DNA from: a virus
Lineage: Duplodnaviria; Heunggongvirae; Uroviricota; Caudoviricetes
Virus record (IMG/VR): IMGVR_UViG_2585427773_000003
Length of the DNA: 64,000 bases
Reading direction: 5' to 3' (one strand)
Shown: positions 47,475 through 52,621 of the stretch, piece by piece
How positions within the stretch are numbered: the stretch's first letter is position 1
Layout of the letters: each line of letters opens with the position of its first letter
Made by a program: the position numbers and the translations under genes
The notes under the pieces: model-generated
What the model saw: only the letters and a program-made list of their open reading frames with translations
Database searches by the model: none
What the model was told of the DNA's origin: nothing

Positions 47475-49508
47475 TTACTTAACCTGGTGGCCAGGTTTAG
47501 CACCGACATCCGGGCTTAACAGGAAGATATCTTTCCCGCCGGGGCCAGCAGCCATCACCATGCCTTCGGAGATACCGAAGCGCATTTTACGCGGAGCCAG
47601 GTTAGCCACCATAATGGTGTGACGACCAATCAGTGCCTGTGGGTCTGGATAAGCAGAACGGATGCCTGAGAAGACATTGCGTTTTTCACCGCCGAGATCC
47701 AGCGTCAGGCGTAGCAGTTTGTCAGAACCTTCAACAAACTCTGCGTTTTCAATCAGTGCCACGCGCAGGTCAACTTTAGCGAAGTCGTCAAAGGTGATGG
47801 TTTCCTGAATCGGGTCGTCTGCCAGTGGGCCAGTTACCGGTGCGGCTGTGGCTCTCACTTCTTCTTTGGATGCTTCCACCAGTGCTTCCACCTGTTTCAT
47901 ATCGATACGGTTATACAGTGCCTTGAACGGATTCACTTTATGGCCCAGCAGCGGTTGCTGGATACCATCCCAGGTCAGTTCTGTATTCAGGAATGCTTCT
48001 GCACGTTCAGTCAGTTTCGGCAGTACCGGCTTCAGGTACGTCATCAGCACGCGGAACAGGTTAATGCCCATAGAGCAAATCGCCTGCAGATCGGCATCGC
48101 GTCCTTCCTGCTTCGCCACCACCCACGGAGCCTGTTCATCGACATAGCGGTTAGCCAGGTCAGCCAATGCCATGATTTCACGGATAGCTTTACCAAATTC
48201 GCGGCTTTCCCATGCTTCGCCAATCACTTCAGCGGCATCAGTAAAGGTTTTGTACAGTTGCGGGTCAGCCAGTTCGTTTGCCAGCACGCCGTCAAAACGC
48301 TTGTTGATAAAGCCTGCATTACGGGAGGCCAGGTTAACCACTTTGTTCACGATATCGGCATTCACGCGCTGAACGAAATCCTCCAGGTTGAGATCGATAT
48401 CATCAATGCGCGAAGAGAGTTTCGCAGTGTAGTAGTAACGCAGGCTGTCGGCGTCAAAATGATTCAGCCAGGTGCTGGCTTTAATAAAGGTGCCGCGAGA
48501 CTTGGACATCTTCGCGCCGTTCACCGTCACATAGCCGTGAACAAACAGGTTGGTCGGCTTGCGGAAGTTGCTGCCTTCCAGCATGGCAGGCCAGAACAGG
48601 CTGTGGAAGTAAACAATATCTTTACCGATGAAGTGGTACAGCTCGGCGGTGGAGTCTTTCTTCCAGTATTCATCGAAGCTGGTGGTATCGCCGCGCTTGT
48701 CGCACAGATTCTTGAAGGAACCCATGTAGCCAATCGGCGCGTCCAGCCAGACGTAGAAATATTTGCCCGGCGCGTCCGGAATTTCAAAACCGAAGTAAGG
48801 CGCATCGCGGGAGATATCCCACTGTTGCAGGCCAGATTCAAACCACTCCTGCATTTTGTTTGCCACCTGCTCCTGCAACGCGCCGCTGCGGGTCCATGCC
48901 TGCAACATTTCGCTGAAAGAAGGCAGATCAAAGAAGAAGTGTTCGGAATCACGCATTACCGGGGTAGCGCCAGAAACCACCGATTTCGGCTCGATCAATT
49001 CAGTCGGGCTATATGTTGCGCCGCAGACTTCACAGTTATCGCCGTATTGATCTGGCGCTTTACATTTCGGGCAGGTGCCTTTTACAAAACGATCCGGCAG
49101 GAACATGCCTTTTTCCGGGTCGTACAACTGAGAGATAGTGCGGTTTTTAATAAAACCGTTCTCTTTCAGGCGAGTATAGATAAGCTCAGACAACTGACGG
49201 TTCTCTTCGCTGTGCGTCGAGTGATAGTTGTCATAGCTGATGTTAAAGCCTGCGAAATCAGTCTGGTGTTCCTGACTCATTTCGCCAATCATCTGCTCCG
49301 GTGTGATACCAAGCTGCTGTGCTTTCAGCATGATCGGCGTACCGTGGGCATCGTCGGCACAGATGAAATTAACCTCGTGGCCGCGCATTCGCTGGTAACG
49401 AACCCAGACATCAGCCTGGATGTGCTCCAGCATATGGCCGAGGTGGATTGAGCCGTTAGCGTACGGCAGCGCGCACGTCACCAGAATTTTCTTCGCGACT
49501 TGGGTCAT
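47475..49508 (-). CDS. metG: Methionine--tRNA ligase
   Basis: 677 aa; HIGH-type motif [16 protein letters not shown], Zn-knuckle CPKC...C..CG, C-terminal tRNA-binding domain; sequence recalled as very close to enterobacterial MetG. Confidence 0.95.
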
Positions 49509-49665
49509 AGTAGGCATTACTTCTTTGTAGTGAAAAGGGGCTTGATAGTAACAAAATGGCCTTATGTCTGCCATGTGATAACAGCATTTCTCATAAATGA
49601 TTAAATGTCGTAGCTGGAGTACACTACAAGGCGACAATTGCGCAAATTAAAATAAAGGAGACGGG

Positions 49666-50766
49666 ATGAGCGAGTCCAAATCGCCGGATGCCCTGAGAGC
49701 AATGGTAGCCGGTACGCTGGCTAATTTTCAGCACCCAACCCTGAAACACAACCTGACTACGCTTAAAGCGTTACACCATGTTGCGTTGATGGATGACACA
49801 CTGCATGTCGAACTAATCATGCCTTTCGTGTGGAATAAGCCTTTTGAAGACCTGAAAGAGCAATGTAGTGGTGATCTGCTCCGTATCACTGGCGCAAAGG
49901 CTATTGACTGGAAGCTGTCGTACAACATTGCCACGCTTAAGCGCGTCAAAAACCAACCAGGCATTAATGGCGTTAAGAACATTATCGCCGTCAGCTCAGG
50001 CAAGGGCGGCGTGGGTAAATCCTCCACGGCGGTAAACCTGGCACTGGCGTTGGCTGCTGAAGGTGCGAAAGTTGGTATTTTGGATGCCGATATCTATGGT
50101 CCATCAATTCCAACCATGCTGGGCGCGGAAAACCAACGTCCAACCTCACCTGACGGTACTCACATGGCACCTATCATGTCTCATGGCCTGGCAACCAACT
50201 CTATTGGTTATCTGGTCACCGACGACAATGCAATGGTGTGGCGTGGACCGATGGCCAGCAAGGCGCTGATGCAGATGTTGCAGGAAACTCTATGGCCTGA
50301 TCTGGACTATCTCGTTCTCGATATGCCGCCGGGCACTGGTGATATTCAGTTGACGCTGGCGCAGAACATTCCTGTAACTGGTGCGGTTGTGGTAACTACG
50401 CCGCAAGACATCGCGCTGATCGATGCGAAGAAAGGCATTGTGATGTTCGAAAAAGTCGAAGTGCCGGTACTGGGTATCGTCGAAAACATGAGTGTGCATA
50501 TTTGCAGTAACTGCGGTCATCACGAGCCAATTTTTGGCACCGGTGGCGCACAGAAACTGGCCGAGAAATACAACACGCAGTTGTTAGGCCAAATGCCACT
50601 TCATATCTCTCTTCGTGAAGATCTGGATAACGGAACACCAACCGTTATTAGTCGTCCAGATAGCGAATTTACGGCTATTTATCGTGACCTCGCAGATCGC
50701 GTTGCCGCCCAAATGTATTGGCAAGGTGAAGTAATACCTGGCGAAATCGCATTCCGCGCAGTGTGA
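49666..50766 (+). CDS. apbC: Fe-S cluster carrier ATPase ApbC/Mrp
   Basis: 366 aa; P-loop SGKGGVGKSS, CxxC motif CSNCGH; divergent from metG as in Enterobacteriaceae chromosomes. Confidence 0.95.
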   Translation: MSESKSPDALRAMVAGTLANFQHPTLKHNLTTLKALHHVALMDDTLHVELIMPFVWNKPFEDLKEQCSGDLLRITGAKAIDWKLSYNIATLKRVKNQPGINGVKNIIAVSSGKGGVGKSSTAVNLALALAAEGAKVGILDADIYGPSIPTMLGAENQRPTSPDGTHMAPIMSHGLATNSIGYLVTDDNAMVWRGPMASKALMQMLQETLWPDLDYLVLDMPPGTGDIQLTLAQNIPVTGAVVVTTPQDIALIDAKKGIVMFEKVEVPVLGIVENMSVHICSNCGHHEPIFGTGGAQKLAEKYNTQLLGQMPLHISLREDLDNGTPTVISRPDSEFTAIYRDLADRVAAQMYWQGEVIPGEIAFRAV

Positions 50767-50792
50767 TAAAAAGGCGGTGCATTGCACCGCCT
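50767..50792. terminator. Bidirectional hairpin terminator between apbC and umuD-like gene
   Basis: aggcggtgcattgcaccgcct hairpin flanked by A-tract. Confidence 0.6.
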
Positions 50793-50803
50793 AATCAGTT
50801 CTC

Positions 50804-51193
50804 CTACATCACGGGACAATCATCAAACTCGCCACTTCTTGCGTCGTTGATAATGTGAGTGATCACACCAAACACGGCATTGCTGCCCGTGCATCCATCG
50901 TCATCCTTTGGCAATGCTTCCTTCTTACCGGTTCTTAAATCCTCCAGATGCTGACGTGGGTACTTCCGGTATCTTTTTACGCGATATTCCCCATCCAGAG
51001 CGCATACAAGCAGAGAACCATCAACCGGGGTAAGTGAGGAATCGACCACCAGCAATGCACCCTGTAATATTCCCTCACGATGATGACTATCAGCTGCCCT
51101 CATGAAGTAGGTCGCTGAAGGATGTCTAATTATCTGCTGATCAAGAGAAATACGGCTCTCAGCATAATCCGCCGCAGGAGAAGGGAAGCCCAT
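50804..51193 (-). CDS. UmuD-like S24 peptidase (LexA/UmuD family)
   Basis: FPSPAADY...HPSATYF...DS...VDGEY.VKRY pattern matching UmuD; Ser/Lys dyad positions retained; perfect LexA box upstream. Confidence 0.75.
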   Translation of the reverse strand: MGFPSPAADYAESRISLDQQIIRHPSATYFMRAADSHHREGILQGALLVVDSSLTPVDGSLLVCALDGEYRVKRYRKYPRQHLEDLRTGKKEALPKDDDGCTGSNAVFGVITHIINDARSGEFDDCPVM

Positions 51194-51209
51194 AATACTC
51201 GCCTCTTAA

Positions 51210-51229
51210 TACTGTATACACATACAGTA
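51210..51229. promoter_or_regulatory. LexA (SOS) box TACTGTATACACATACAGTA
   Basis: CTGT-N8-ACAG perfect palindrome 17-36 bp upstream of umuD-like ATG. Confidence 0.8.
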
Positions 51230-51523
51230 TATATTGAAGCTATATATTTTTGAACTCTATCTCTTAAAAAAGATGTTAATAAGATGCTAACTATTGAAAG
51301 GCATAAATATATACAATTCAAACAAACGTTATTTTTAACAAATTTTTTCTTCCCATTGACTTTTTCGAACGCCTTGTCCGGTCTAAAGTGCGCAGAAGTC
51401 ACTTTTTCCTTCCTGAGTTATCCACAGGCTTATGCACTTGCATGAAAAATCTATTCACACTATCTTAATTCGCAAGACACTGATGTTGCAGTATTGAGGG
51501 TATGTTGGGTTAAAAATAGACAT

Positions 51524-51556
51524 TAAAAAGCCCAGTTGACTAGGCTGGGCTTTTTA
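51524..51556. terminator. Bidirectional hairpin terminator
   Basis: agcccag...ctgggct stem flanked by A-tract and T-tract. Confidence 0.55.
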
Positions 51557-51592
51557 AAGGGAAACAGAGTTTGAGGCTCTGTTCCTGAGCCA

Positions 51593-51608
51593 TAAGTATC
51601 TGGCGACT
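51593..51608. repeat. 16-bp direct repeat TAAGTATCTGGCGACT, copy A
   Basis: Identical copy at 51766-51781. Confidence 0.8.
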
Positions 51609-51765
51609 GAATTAAGATTAACCGAATGTACTGGATTCATCAAGAAACGTTGAGTGGTCATACCAGGTAATAATGACCATTTACTAAACATCGTTGTTCT
51701 CAAAGAAGATTTAAGTCCAGGTTTTTGGTGACTCTAAAACCTTACCTTAACTCGAAATCGTGCCG

Positions 51766-51781
51766 TAAGTATCTGGCGACT
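51766..51781. repeat. 16-bp direct repeat TAAGTATCTGGCGACT, copy B
   Basis: Identical to 51593-51608; followed by small hydrophobic ORF. Confidence 0.8.
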
Positions 51782-51855
51782 ACAGATATTGCAACTGCAA
51801 AGGCAATCCCAAAGGTATTTGCAGCTAGGCGCGATAAAACTAAGTGAGGCCTGTT

Positions 51856-51939
51856 ATGGTTAACTTACTGTTCAAAATCGTGCCGCCGATGTTCGCGATT
51901 ATCAAAGCGATCATTGAGTACGTAAACCAGCGTCCATAA
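51856..51939 (+). CDS. Small hydrophobic peptide (27 aa), candidate type I toxin
   Basis: MVNLLFKIVPPMFAIIKAIIEYVNQRP; RBS gagg 6 nt upstream; terminator hairpin 51953-51982 downstream. Confidence 0.25.
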   Translation: MVNLLFKIVPPMFAIIKAIIEYVNQRP

Positions 51940-51994
51940 CGCTAGTTGCTACAGGCCCCATCAAGAGCATGGGGCCTCTTTATCGTACTATTGC

Positions 51995-52621
51995 TTATTT
52001 TTTACGGACTGAGTTGTTCACTGCTCTGGCAATCTTCTCCCGCAATTGCTGCGTTCCGTGGTACTGAACCGCAATATCTCTCAACTCGTTCACCAGTTCT
52101 CGAATCTGGTGATCTTTAAGCTCATTATTTGGGTGATTGGTAACAACTCTGGTTAATTCACCCTTGTCTTTTGCTCTTACGTATGCAGCTCTTGTGCATT
52201 CGACCCATGTATTACCGCCTACATTAACTTCGTAGATTAGGCTGGACTTATCTGTCAATTCGGAACAAATACGGGCCGTGGTCTGGCAACTAGAGCATTC
52301 GCAGTTATCGCGGAAACCGTGATCTACCGGTCGAGAAAGAGGTTTAACTTTTTCATCCAACTTCATCACAGCATCGTGATAAGCGTTCCAGCCGTCATCT
52401 TTACCAAGTTGATAAATCTCTGAAGGCTCCATGTAGTCTATATCGCAACCTTCTTCATCCGATCTATCTGGTCGCTTCCCTGGTAATCGCTCATAAAAAC
52501 GATTTCTGTCTCGACGTTCGGCTCTCAGTGCTAACGCAAGAAGTTGCTCAAGCGAGGTATTTGCACCAGCAATAATTTCATTGAGAATATCTTCTGTGAG
52601 ATCTTTCGCTACCGTGCTCAT
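51995..52621 (-). CDS. Hypothetical protein
   Basis: 208 aa ORF, Cys-rich central segment. Confidence 0.45.
   Translation of the reverse strand: MSTVAKDLTEDILNEIIAGANTSLEQLLALALRAERRDRNRFYERLPGKRPDRSDEEGCDIDYMEPSEIYQLGKDDGWNAYHDAVMKLDEKVKPLSRPVDHGFRDNCECSSCQTTARICSELTDKSSLIYEVNVGGNTWVECTRAAYVRAKDKGELTRVVTNHPNNELKDHQIRELVNELRDIAVQYHGTQQLREKIARAVNNSVRKK

Follow-up and report, generated by a model that had tools for sequence, protein, structure and literature searches.

The DNA examined here, a 64,000-nucleotide (nt) stretch of a member of the Caudoviricetes (IMG/VR record IMGVR_UViG_2585427773_000003; hereafter the window), appears to carry at positions 51521-51985 a mobile module of the type I toxin-antitoxin (TA) kind, in which a small RNA (sRNA) is predicted to pair with the untranslated 5' region (5'UTR) of a divergently transcribed mRNA encoding a hydrophobic peptide of 27 amino acids (aa). 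That this module is independent of the neighbouring UmuD'-like gene humD, works in the manner of tisB/istR-1 and serves as a plasmid addiction system is a reading to which we assign a probability of roughly 0.7. The module probably represents a new type I TA family with a tisB/istR-1-like architecture, and the toxicity of its peptide is probable by analogy. An original prediction made from the letters of the window had suggested, as a hypothesis, a type I toxin/sRNA locus in the style of dinQ-agrAB or tisB-istR; covariation within the sRNA, covariation between the sRNA and the mRNA, and purifying selection on the peptide all point in this direction. The comparative support is strong, and the architecture and the likely role of the module are unsurprising. 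Two independent units adjoin in this region, namely humD with its LexA box and the TA-like module (Table 1).

Table 1. Features of the module and of its humD-side neighbours in the window
Feature	Position	Strand	Remarks
Candidate antitoxin sRNA, ~87 nt	51521..51608	-	from fold and covariation; 5' end placed from the promoter
sRNA 5' pairing region	51608-51589	-	contains a small GCCA/UGGC hairpin
sRNA middle hairpin	51585-51561	-	9 bp
sRNA terminator part	51555-51525	-
Terminator hairpin	51523..51557	.	ends the minus-strand sRNA
Predicted sRNA promoter	51615..51643	-	-35 TTGATG 51643-51638, 17-nt spacer, -10 TAATCT 51620-51615
5'UTR hairpin H1 (AGGUUU/AAACCU)	51719..51742	+	loop UUGGUGA invariant
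Predicted long-range helix flanking H3	51758-51764 / 51828-51834	+	UCGUGCC / GGCGCGA
sRNA target site in the putative toxin mRNA 5'UTR	51762..51781	+	75-94 nt upstream of the AUG
Target hairpin	51768-51790	+	holds the 3' half of the target; loop GCGACUA complementary to the sRNA 5' end
5'UTR hairpin H3 (CUGCAAA...UUUGCAG)	51796..51825	+	all pairs kept in 10/10 variants, in part by ascertainment, as part of the sample was found with the H3 pattern
Shine-Dalgarno sequence GAGG	51846-51849	+	6 nt upstream of the ATG
Candidate toxin reading frame, 27 aa	51856..51939	+	MVNLLFKIVPPMFAIIKAIIEYVNQRP; hydrophobic, own Shine-Dalgarno sequence and terminator
Putative toxin mRNA terminator	51953..51985	+	9-bp stem with 6 G-C pairs, then CTTTATCG
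humD	50804..51193	-	129 aa, P1-type UmuD'-like S24 protein; neighbour of the module, outside it
LexA box of humD	51210..51229	.	TACTGTATACACATACAGTA; overlaps the predicted humD promoter
Predicted humD promoter	51254-51249 / 51231-51226	-	-35 TTCAAA, -10 TATACT; promoter scan
Small phage reading frame, 53 aa	51284..51445	+	between the LexA box and the module; phrog_28987

The candidate antitoxin RNA

The comparisons rest on 10-13 distinct variants of the module, drawn from the plasmids described below and from 28 IMG/VR contigs and two genome contigs retrieved with a 5'UTR-derived pattern. The minus-strand unit folds with a minimum free energy of -30.9 kcal/mol (z = -5.5), and its three helices are supported by covariation: across 13 variants 94.2% of the alignment cells are paired, as against 33-62% in slid controls, seven pairs have changed on both sides, and no shuffle reached the observed covariation score. 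The arms of the terminator (51523-51535 and 51545-51557) are 13 nt long, fully complementary (100%) and followed by T-runs on both strands, in keeping with the bidirectional terminator first proposed here; alignment A3 keeps each of the 11 base pairs of this helix in 100% of the cells, and three of them have changed on both sides. Only the terminator of the window variant also ends plus-strand transcription from the humD side. In the Citrobacter and Klebsiella variants the U-run is found on the minus-strand side alone, which fixes the direction of sRNA transcription.

A promoter for this RNA can be placed on the basis of conservation, the motif TTGA(A/T)G - 17 nt - TAA(G/T)(C/A)T being fixed in position in all aligned variants while the sequence of its spacer varies; the promoter scan passes it in the variants L005 and L007. 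The -10 element is followed by 6 nt and then by AGTCGCC, and from this position the sRNA would start at about 51608, making a copy of the repeat described below the very 5' end of the RNA. A covariance model of the sRNA (R1) gives one match of 79-101 bits per locus. Each locus thus seems to hold a single sRNA gene rather than the duplicated sRNA genes first envisaged, the second copy of the repeat being the likely target site in the mRNA.

Co-evolution of the sRNA and its target

The repeat in question is an exact 16-bp direct repeat (51593-51608 and 51766-51781, spacing 173 bp), as had been noted from the sequence. If one mismatch is allowed, it covers 20 nt (19/20 identical; 51589-51608 and 51762-51781). 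An exact repeat of at least 16 nt arose in none of 1000 dinucleotide-preserving shuffles of 51200-52000, the largest being 14 nt. The copy at 51589-51608 would constitute the sRNA 5' end and that at 51762-51781 its mRNA target: the second copy belongs to the plus-strand 5'UTR, and the 5' end of the sRNA is hence complementary to the mRNA, its first ~20 nt pairing perfectly with the 5'UTR but for one G·U. The RNA-RNA interaction prediction that had been proposed as a check yields duplexes of 20-25 bp across the variants, with energies of -38.6 to -51.9 kcal/mol.

In a joint alignment of 10 variants, 9 of the 25 intermolecular pairs have changed on both sides; 93.2% of the cells are paired, as compared with 30-37% when the partners are slid, and none of 500 shuffles reaches the observed values. 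Nine distinct co-varying repeat pairs occur among the variants, e.g., GTTGTTAACCGGCGAC in both copies in Klebsiella and a sequence ending in GGCAGC in both copies in Citrobacter portucalensis. The sRNA and its mRNA target therefore co-evolve. Further, where only one copy has changed, the change always produces a G·U and never a mismatch, which argues for pairing between RNAs as opposed to a repeat that acts at the DNA level.

A second, 11-nt repeat (aaatcgtgccg, 51755-51765 and 51873-51883; 13/14 over 14 nt) is present as described, but its interpretation as sequence shared between the sRNA and the toxin does not hold up: it lies outside the sRNA, repeats of at least 11 nt appear in 8.4% of 1000 shuffles of 51200-52000 and are by themselves not beyond chance, and the copy inside the reading frame is not kept at synonymous sites in the other variants.

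An inverted repeat, GGTCAT-N11-ATGACC (51657-51679), is situated between the sRNA and mRNA units. In the variant L008 it reads AGTCAT...ATGACT, both arms having changed with the symmetry kept, whereas the Citrobacter variants lack it. An operator is one possible role, a hairpin formed by the RNA of a long 5'UTR another.

The candidate toxin peptide

The 27-codon hydrophobic open reading frame (ORF) singled out at the start is present, with GAGG 6 nt upstream of its ATG, and is under purifying selection. The ORFs of the window and of variant L020 differ by nine synonymous and two non-synonymous changes (ratio of non-synonymous to synonymous divergence, pN/pS, 0.06), and across all pairs of variants pN/pS ranges from 0.06 to 0.56. 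The terminator reported behind the ORF is likewise found (hairpin 51953-51977), and the other variants have a GC hairpin and a T-run at the corresponding position.

Inspection of the variants shows that a paralogous peptide, type A (MQMLLLFLKLAHPVTVIIMTLLGFWKNR), exists beside the type B peptide of the window. Some loci have only type B, as in the window, others only type A, and others again both peptides, A before B, downstream of the one 5'UTR. The last arrangement, with two tandem ORFs that each have their own Shine-Dalgarno (SD) sequence, is seen in L004 (Klebsiella pneumoniae NZ_CP143920), L005/L012, L007 and L019, type A coming first and type B (MVNLLMKLLPPLVSIIVMVVDYFNKR) second; such loci would be two-peptide operons under one antisense RNA. 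Relatives of the peptides were sought by tblastn and exact look-up, and in public collections the peptide is found only as a 'hypothetical protein' with two cluster members, whereas DqlB is widely named.

A sigma-70-like site (TTTACG-17-GATAAT, 51898-51926, minus strand) lies antisense within the ORF. If active, it would give a cis-antisense RNA across the SD and the 5'UTR; the number of sigma-70-like sites in the region is at the level of chance, and the hexamers of this one are fixed by conserved codons.

The 5'UTR and the likely mechanism

The 5'UTR is predicted to form conserved hairpins. In the RNAalifold consensus of 10 variants three pairs of hairpin H1 have changed on both sides. The stem of the target hairpin covaries with the target itself, the Klebsiella variant having GUUAAC/GUUAAC, and the long-range helix around H3 is kept in at least 8 of 10 variants with one-sided changes only. 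The loop of H1 (TTGGTGA, 51725-51731) is invariant in a BLAST-derived alignment of five variants, with the stem covarying in the 10-variant fold; this suggests a sequence-specific role, such as contact with a protein, the ribosome or an RNase, or tertiary pairing.

By partition function, the SD of the window variant is unpaired with a probability of 0.02, being buried in a local hairpin, and neither blocking the target nor truncating the 5' end alters its accessibility in any of 11 variants. A structural switch of the dinQ style is for this reason disfavoured. The specific version considered, in which the two copies of AAAUCGUGCC compete for GGCGCGAU and sRNA binding closes the SD, was rejected on the same ground and because synonymous sites in the ORF copy are not kept among the variants; additionally, in the type-B loci the SD hairpin and its outer helix are conserved with no compensatory change, which also speaks against a switch.

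A mechanism of the tisB/istR-1 type is by analogy the most likely one, because the target lies far upstream and the SD is already sequestered. A constitutive sRNA of ~87 nt would be transcribed leftward from about 51608, and the divergent mRNA would encode the 27-aa peptide. The sRNA would occupy an upstream ribosome-loading (standby) region 75-94 nt from the AUG and/or form with it a 20-25-bp substrate for RNase III, and would in this way keep the peptide from being made. Upon loss of the phage-plasmid the sRNA, being unstable, would disappear before the mRNA's product is held in check any longer, and membrane damage by the peptide would follow, the outcome being post-segregational killing, i.e., plasmid addiction. 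This role is probable by analogy because the cassette is mobile, in one case adjoins a replication gene, and has a precedent in dqlB-agrB, a plasmid-borne addiction module of pOXA-48 demonstrated experimentally in 2025 (PMC12365149). The transcripts and their ends, the toxicity, the standby or RNase III step and the addiction role are what we infer from these comparisons.

The module as a mobile unit

The region 51500-51990 has no match to P1 or P7, unlike 51200-51446, which is homologous to the humD neighbourhood of P1/P7 (the P7/P1 upf region). Copies of the module with 67-78% identity are found, without humD and in differing genetic settings, on plasmids of Citrobacter, Klebsiella and Enterobacter; its neighbours there include RepB, an IS3 element and DUF5417 genes, and in one plasmid it adjoins the replication gene (RepB). 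These distributions indicate that 51521-51985 is a separate, compact mobile cassette. None of 11 module variants has a CTG-N10-CAG, and their best matches to the LexA consensus have at least seven mismatches.

One of the variants, L008, comes from a contig labelled 'MAG: Bacillota bacterium' (JAEWTL010000044.1). Its module closely resembles that of the E. coli lineage, encodes a type-B peptide (MLNLLFKVVPPMFAIIEAIIEYVNQRP) and has the same flanks, and the contig is most likely a mis-binned enterobacterial phage-plasmid.

humD, its LexA box and the small phage ORF

The product of the ORF at 50804-51193 matches the NCBIfam equivalog NF051876 'HumD family' at 219.8 bits (cut-off 120) over residues 1-129 of 129, as well as Pfam Peptidase_S24 and PHROG 811 (UmuD-like), and in RefSeq this protein likewise carries the HumD family annotation; it is the equivalog of P1 HumD. 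A UmuD-like gene without a umuC partner is thus present as stated: no umuC follows humD, and apbC and metG are found there instead. Such a stand-alone gene is not the oddity it was taken for, being ordinary in P1-type modules, because the P1 equivalog has a LexA site at the same place. The box here, TACTGTATACACATACAGTA, is the sole match to the 20-nt LexA consensus at three or fewer mismatches in the window (0.00 expected by chance); its two mismatches both fall within the AT spacer, and it is the only CTG-N10-CAG between 49408 and 54034. The box is present where first described, and it belongs to humD, lying 16 nt upstream of the humD ATG. The layout in P1 is identical, the site being annotated there as 'LexA binding site in the regulatory region of lxr and humD'. 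In short, humD and its box form the SOS-regulated unit with a UmuD' homologue already known from P1-type phages, alike in the equivalog model match, the length of 129 aa and the LexA box just upstream. They differ in their surroundings: P1 has phd-doc after humD and lxr opposite it, whereas in the window apbC-metG come after the gene and the small phrog_28987 ORF lies opposite. The idea that the module occupies the phd-doc slot of P1 was rejected, phd-doc being downstream of humD and the module on the upstream side, beyond the small ORF.

That small ORF (51284-51445) matches positions 1-53 of the 80 of phrog_28987 (E 5e-29) and extends up to the bidirectional terminator. The homologous position in plasmid AP026520 has an 81-aa coding sequence that ends at the terminator, and on both counts the 53-aa ORF of the window looks like a shortened member of an 80-aa family. 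With the LexA box between it and the opposing humD, it may be a LexA-controlled divergent partner, as lxr is in P1.

The SOS link proposed for the locus as a whole does not extend to the module. The box is that of humD, an ORF and a terminator intervene, and elsewhere the module occurs with neither humD nor a LexA-like box; the sequences thus indicate that the module is not SOS-controlled.

Alternative explanations

Several points weigh against the TA reading. The transcripts and the toxicity of the module are predictions. The peptide contains two lysines, one glutamate and a Pro-Pro pair, so that its hydrophobicity is less even than in many type I toxins. Blocking the target in silico leaves SD accessibility unchanged, so the repression step is drawn from the analogy with tisB/istR-1. 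For the putative toxin mRNA there is no position-conserved sigma-70 match among the variants, and its promoter was not located in the window variant. Finally, co-variation of direct repeats could in principle stem from gene conversion or from a shared DNA-binding protein; the restriction of asymmetric changes to G·U argues against both, yet the independent events are few.

These points leave some room for an sRNA-tuned small membrane protein that is not a toxin and acts in superinfection exclusion, in modulating a membrane complex or in lysis timing. Many small membrane proteins are non-toxic, the peptide is amphipathic rather than purely hydrophobic, and the computed evidence concerns regulation and coding rather than toxicity. 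However, a divergent sRNA with long perfect pairing far from a sequestered SD in a structured 5'UTR is a type I hallmark, seen in tisB, zorO, dinQ and shoB (PMC5397157, PMC5066626); further, the compact cassette moves between unrelated plasmids and once adjoins a replication gene, as addiction modules do, and its specificity variants co-evolve. A non-toxic role is on balance unlikely, though far from fanciful. Much harder to sustain, indeed barely credible, is the notion that the repeats are DNA-level elements (iterons, or replication, partition or repressor operators) and that the ORF and the 'sRNA' are coincidental. It could appeal to the presence in every variant of two direct repeats of 20 bp, separated by 150-180 bp, to RepB beside them in one plasmid and to the inverted repeat GGTCAT...ATGACC between them, but it leaves unexplained the purifying selection on the ORF, the minus-strand unit whose promoter and terminator are conserved and whose three helices show compensatory changes, the G·U-yielding nature of the one-sided differences, and the covariation of the target copy with an intramolecular partner as well.

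The two remaining alternatives relate the module to the DinQ-like systems. The original model of a LexA-controlled dinQ-agrAB-like toxin locus, with the 16-bp repeats as two duplicated sRNA genes, could draw on a strong LexA box 530-650 bp away, on a weak full-length match of the Rfam AgrB model and on a peptide equal in length to DinQ (27 aa). It is very improbable, given that the box sits just ahead of humD as in P1 and is cut off from the module by the small ORF and the terminator, that the module occurs without humD and its 11 variants lack LexA-like sites, that there is one sRNA gene per locus with the second repeat copy in the sense 5'UTR, that the AgrB match falls short of 40 bits and is absent in other variants, that R1 misses K-12 agrA/agrB, and that the DinQ and DqlB hidden Markov models (HMMs) miss the peptides yet find their positive controls. 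A different proposal, which bears on classification and not on mechanism, is that the module belongs, as a branch that has diverged very far, to the DinQ/Dql (dqlB-agrB) superfamily rather than being a family of its own. The two share their architecture; the peptide and pOXA-48 DqlB (MINLLIVV...) have the N-terminus M(V/I)NLL in common; and L020 and L028 show short collinear matches to the pOXA-48 locus, comprising the sRNA terminator (25/30, E 2e-4), TAAACAATTGACGTG (15/15, E 0.026) and ATGrTTAACTTG. R1 also matches pOXA-48 agrB at 25.4 bits, but with the terminator alone aligned, and nhmmer with the whole module likewise finds only the terminator of that locus (E 0.059); apart from the sRNA terminator, BLAST and nhmmer yielded no significant similarity to the dinQ/dql 5'UTR. 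The DinQ and DqlB HMMs give no match, there is no BLAST similarity to K-12 dinQ-agrAB, the 'LELIR' signature of DinQ and DqlB is absent from the module peptides, and in hhalign the DqlB scores (13.6-15.6, reached by 2-4 of 300 shuffles) are no better than those of Ldr (15.5) and TisB (14.4). Membership in that branch is accordingly improbable, and a distant kinship with the Dql family is possible. As a separate observation, the TAAACAATTGACGTG stretch from the agrB/dqlB complementarity region of pOXA-48 is identical to the sRNA promoter spacer of L020.

Element and genomic context

The window is an SSU5-like phage-plasmid of Escherichia coli: its head-gene region shares 82% identity with Salmonella phage SSU5 and 98-99% with the E. 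coli phage-plasmids Cyrano and CMS-2020a. The possibility of a conserved chromosomal intergenic sequence, raised at the outset as one that would count against a toxin locus, is answered by this non-chromosomal setting. The region 50780-52000 recurs at >99% identity on 105-126-kb E. coli plasmids, and at least 80% of it, covering humD and the module, is present in 111 of 5426 complete E. coli genomes (~2%). According to the annotation, metG and apbC lie beside humD on related E. coli plasmids too.

The stretch 47475-50766, directly beside humD, holds metG at full length on the minus strand, encoding methionyl-tRNA synthetase, and apbC on the plus strand, and the pair is likewise annotated in phage Cyrano. 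A housekeeping aminoacyl-tRNA synthetase is an unusual cargo for an SSU5-like phage-plasmid.

Significance

Phage-plasmids of the SSU5/pHCM2 type are common in clinical E. coli, and some carry extended-spectrum beta-lactamase genes; to our knowledge, their maintenance in the cell is poorly described. If the present reading is true, an RNA-controlled killer peptide would be a stability determinant of such elements and a possible target for curing them, an idea that parallels dqlB-agrB on pOXA-48 (PMC12365149). RNA biologists would find in the locus a set of sRNA/target specificities that have co-evolved in nature, along with single- and double-peptide operons under one antisense control. It also illustrates that entire type I families still escape annotation pipelines as well as Pfam, NCBIfam and Rfam. 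A literature search of incomplete coverage, which took in type I TA systems in phage-plasmids and the peptide strings, returned no description of the module. The broadest form of the claim, namely an undescribed type I TA family with one- and two-peptide versions, diversified pairing specificities and a role in addiction and possibly against phages, distributed over E. coli SSU5-like phage-plasmids and plasmids of Citrobacter, Klebsiella and Enterobacter, we regard as evenly poised between right and wrong.

Comparison with known type I systems

The peptides have no match in Pfam, NCBIfam or PHROG. The NCBIfam models perform as they should on controls, K-12 DinQ scoring 54 bits and TisB 69.6 bits, with DqlB also recovered; the DinQ model (NF041472) gives no match at E<=10 for nine module peptides, and neither the DqlB model (NF041473) nor the TisB models match them. 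No Rfam family matches the window at its gathering score. The AgrB model (RF02891) aligns with the sRNA over its full length at 27.1 bits (E 0.18; gathering score 40) in the window variant only; it has no match in seven other variants, which weakly match OrzO-P or RNAI instead, and Rfam IstR does not match the sRNA. Conversely, R1 has no match on the K-12 agrA/agrB or ldr/rdl loci. Homology to K-12 dinQ-agrAB was rejected, blastn-short returning only chance words, R1 nothing and AgrB a sub-threshold match. Kinship of the peptide to Ldr, DqlB or TisB by hhalign was likewise set aside, the scores being weak, non-specific and similar to one another; that of Ldr corresponds to a probability of 16.9% and P = 0.0015, and is reached by 1 of 300 column shuffles. 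As an aside on the reference models, the experimentally validated agrB of pOXA-48 (L042, NC_019154.1, 6338-6410) is missed by Rfam AgrB even at E<=1, so that the Rfam family covers only the chromosomal K-12 type.

In architectural terms, the dinQ/agrAB and dqlB/agrB loci (PMC3567139, PMC5066626, PMC12365149) have the same order of terminator, sRNA, divergent promoters, 5'UTR target, SD, ORF and terminator. K-12 dinQ/agrB and pOXA-48 dqlB/agrB also share the geometry of a direct DNA repeat read from opposite strands, and at 27 aa the module peptide is comparable to DinQ (27 aa) and DqlB (31 aa). Unlike these systems, the module has a pairing of 20-25 nt instead of 31-35 nt, one sRNA gene instead of two and no LexA box, and some of its variants encode tandem peptides; NF041472 and NF041473 do not recognise its peptides, AgrB stays below threshold, and its 5'UTR bears no similarity to theirs. 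The type A and B peptides can be aligned with the C-terminal two-thirds of Ldr (LAxPxxxxIxT...W/Y-x-N-R), but they have no Pfam or NCBIfam match, and Rdl overlaps its target in cis, whereas the module sRNA does not overlap the mRNA. A divergent trans-acting sRNA is likewise found in zorO/orzO and shoB/ohsC, with 18-19-nt pairing in a long 5'UTR that limits translation (PMC5397157); no sequence or model match links them to the module, OrzO-P scoring 33 bits against a gathering score of 60 in one variant. The tisB/istR-1 system differs in being chromosomal, whereas the module resides on phage-plasmids and plasmids, has no LexA box for its candidate toxin and is not matched by the TisB or IstR models. 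Nevertheless, it has the same divergent, non-overlapping sRNA, a comparable ~20 nt of perfect pairing ~100 nt upstream of a sequestered ribosome-binding site, and a hydrophobic peptide of <30 aa. Hence, while the membership models of each of these families pass it over, the module appears by analogy to work like tisB/istR-1, zorO/orzO and dinQ/agrB.

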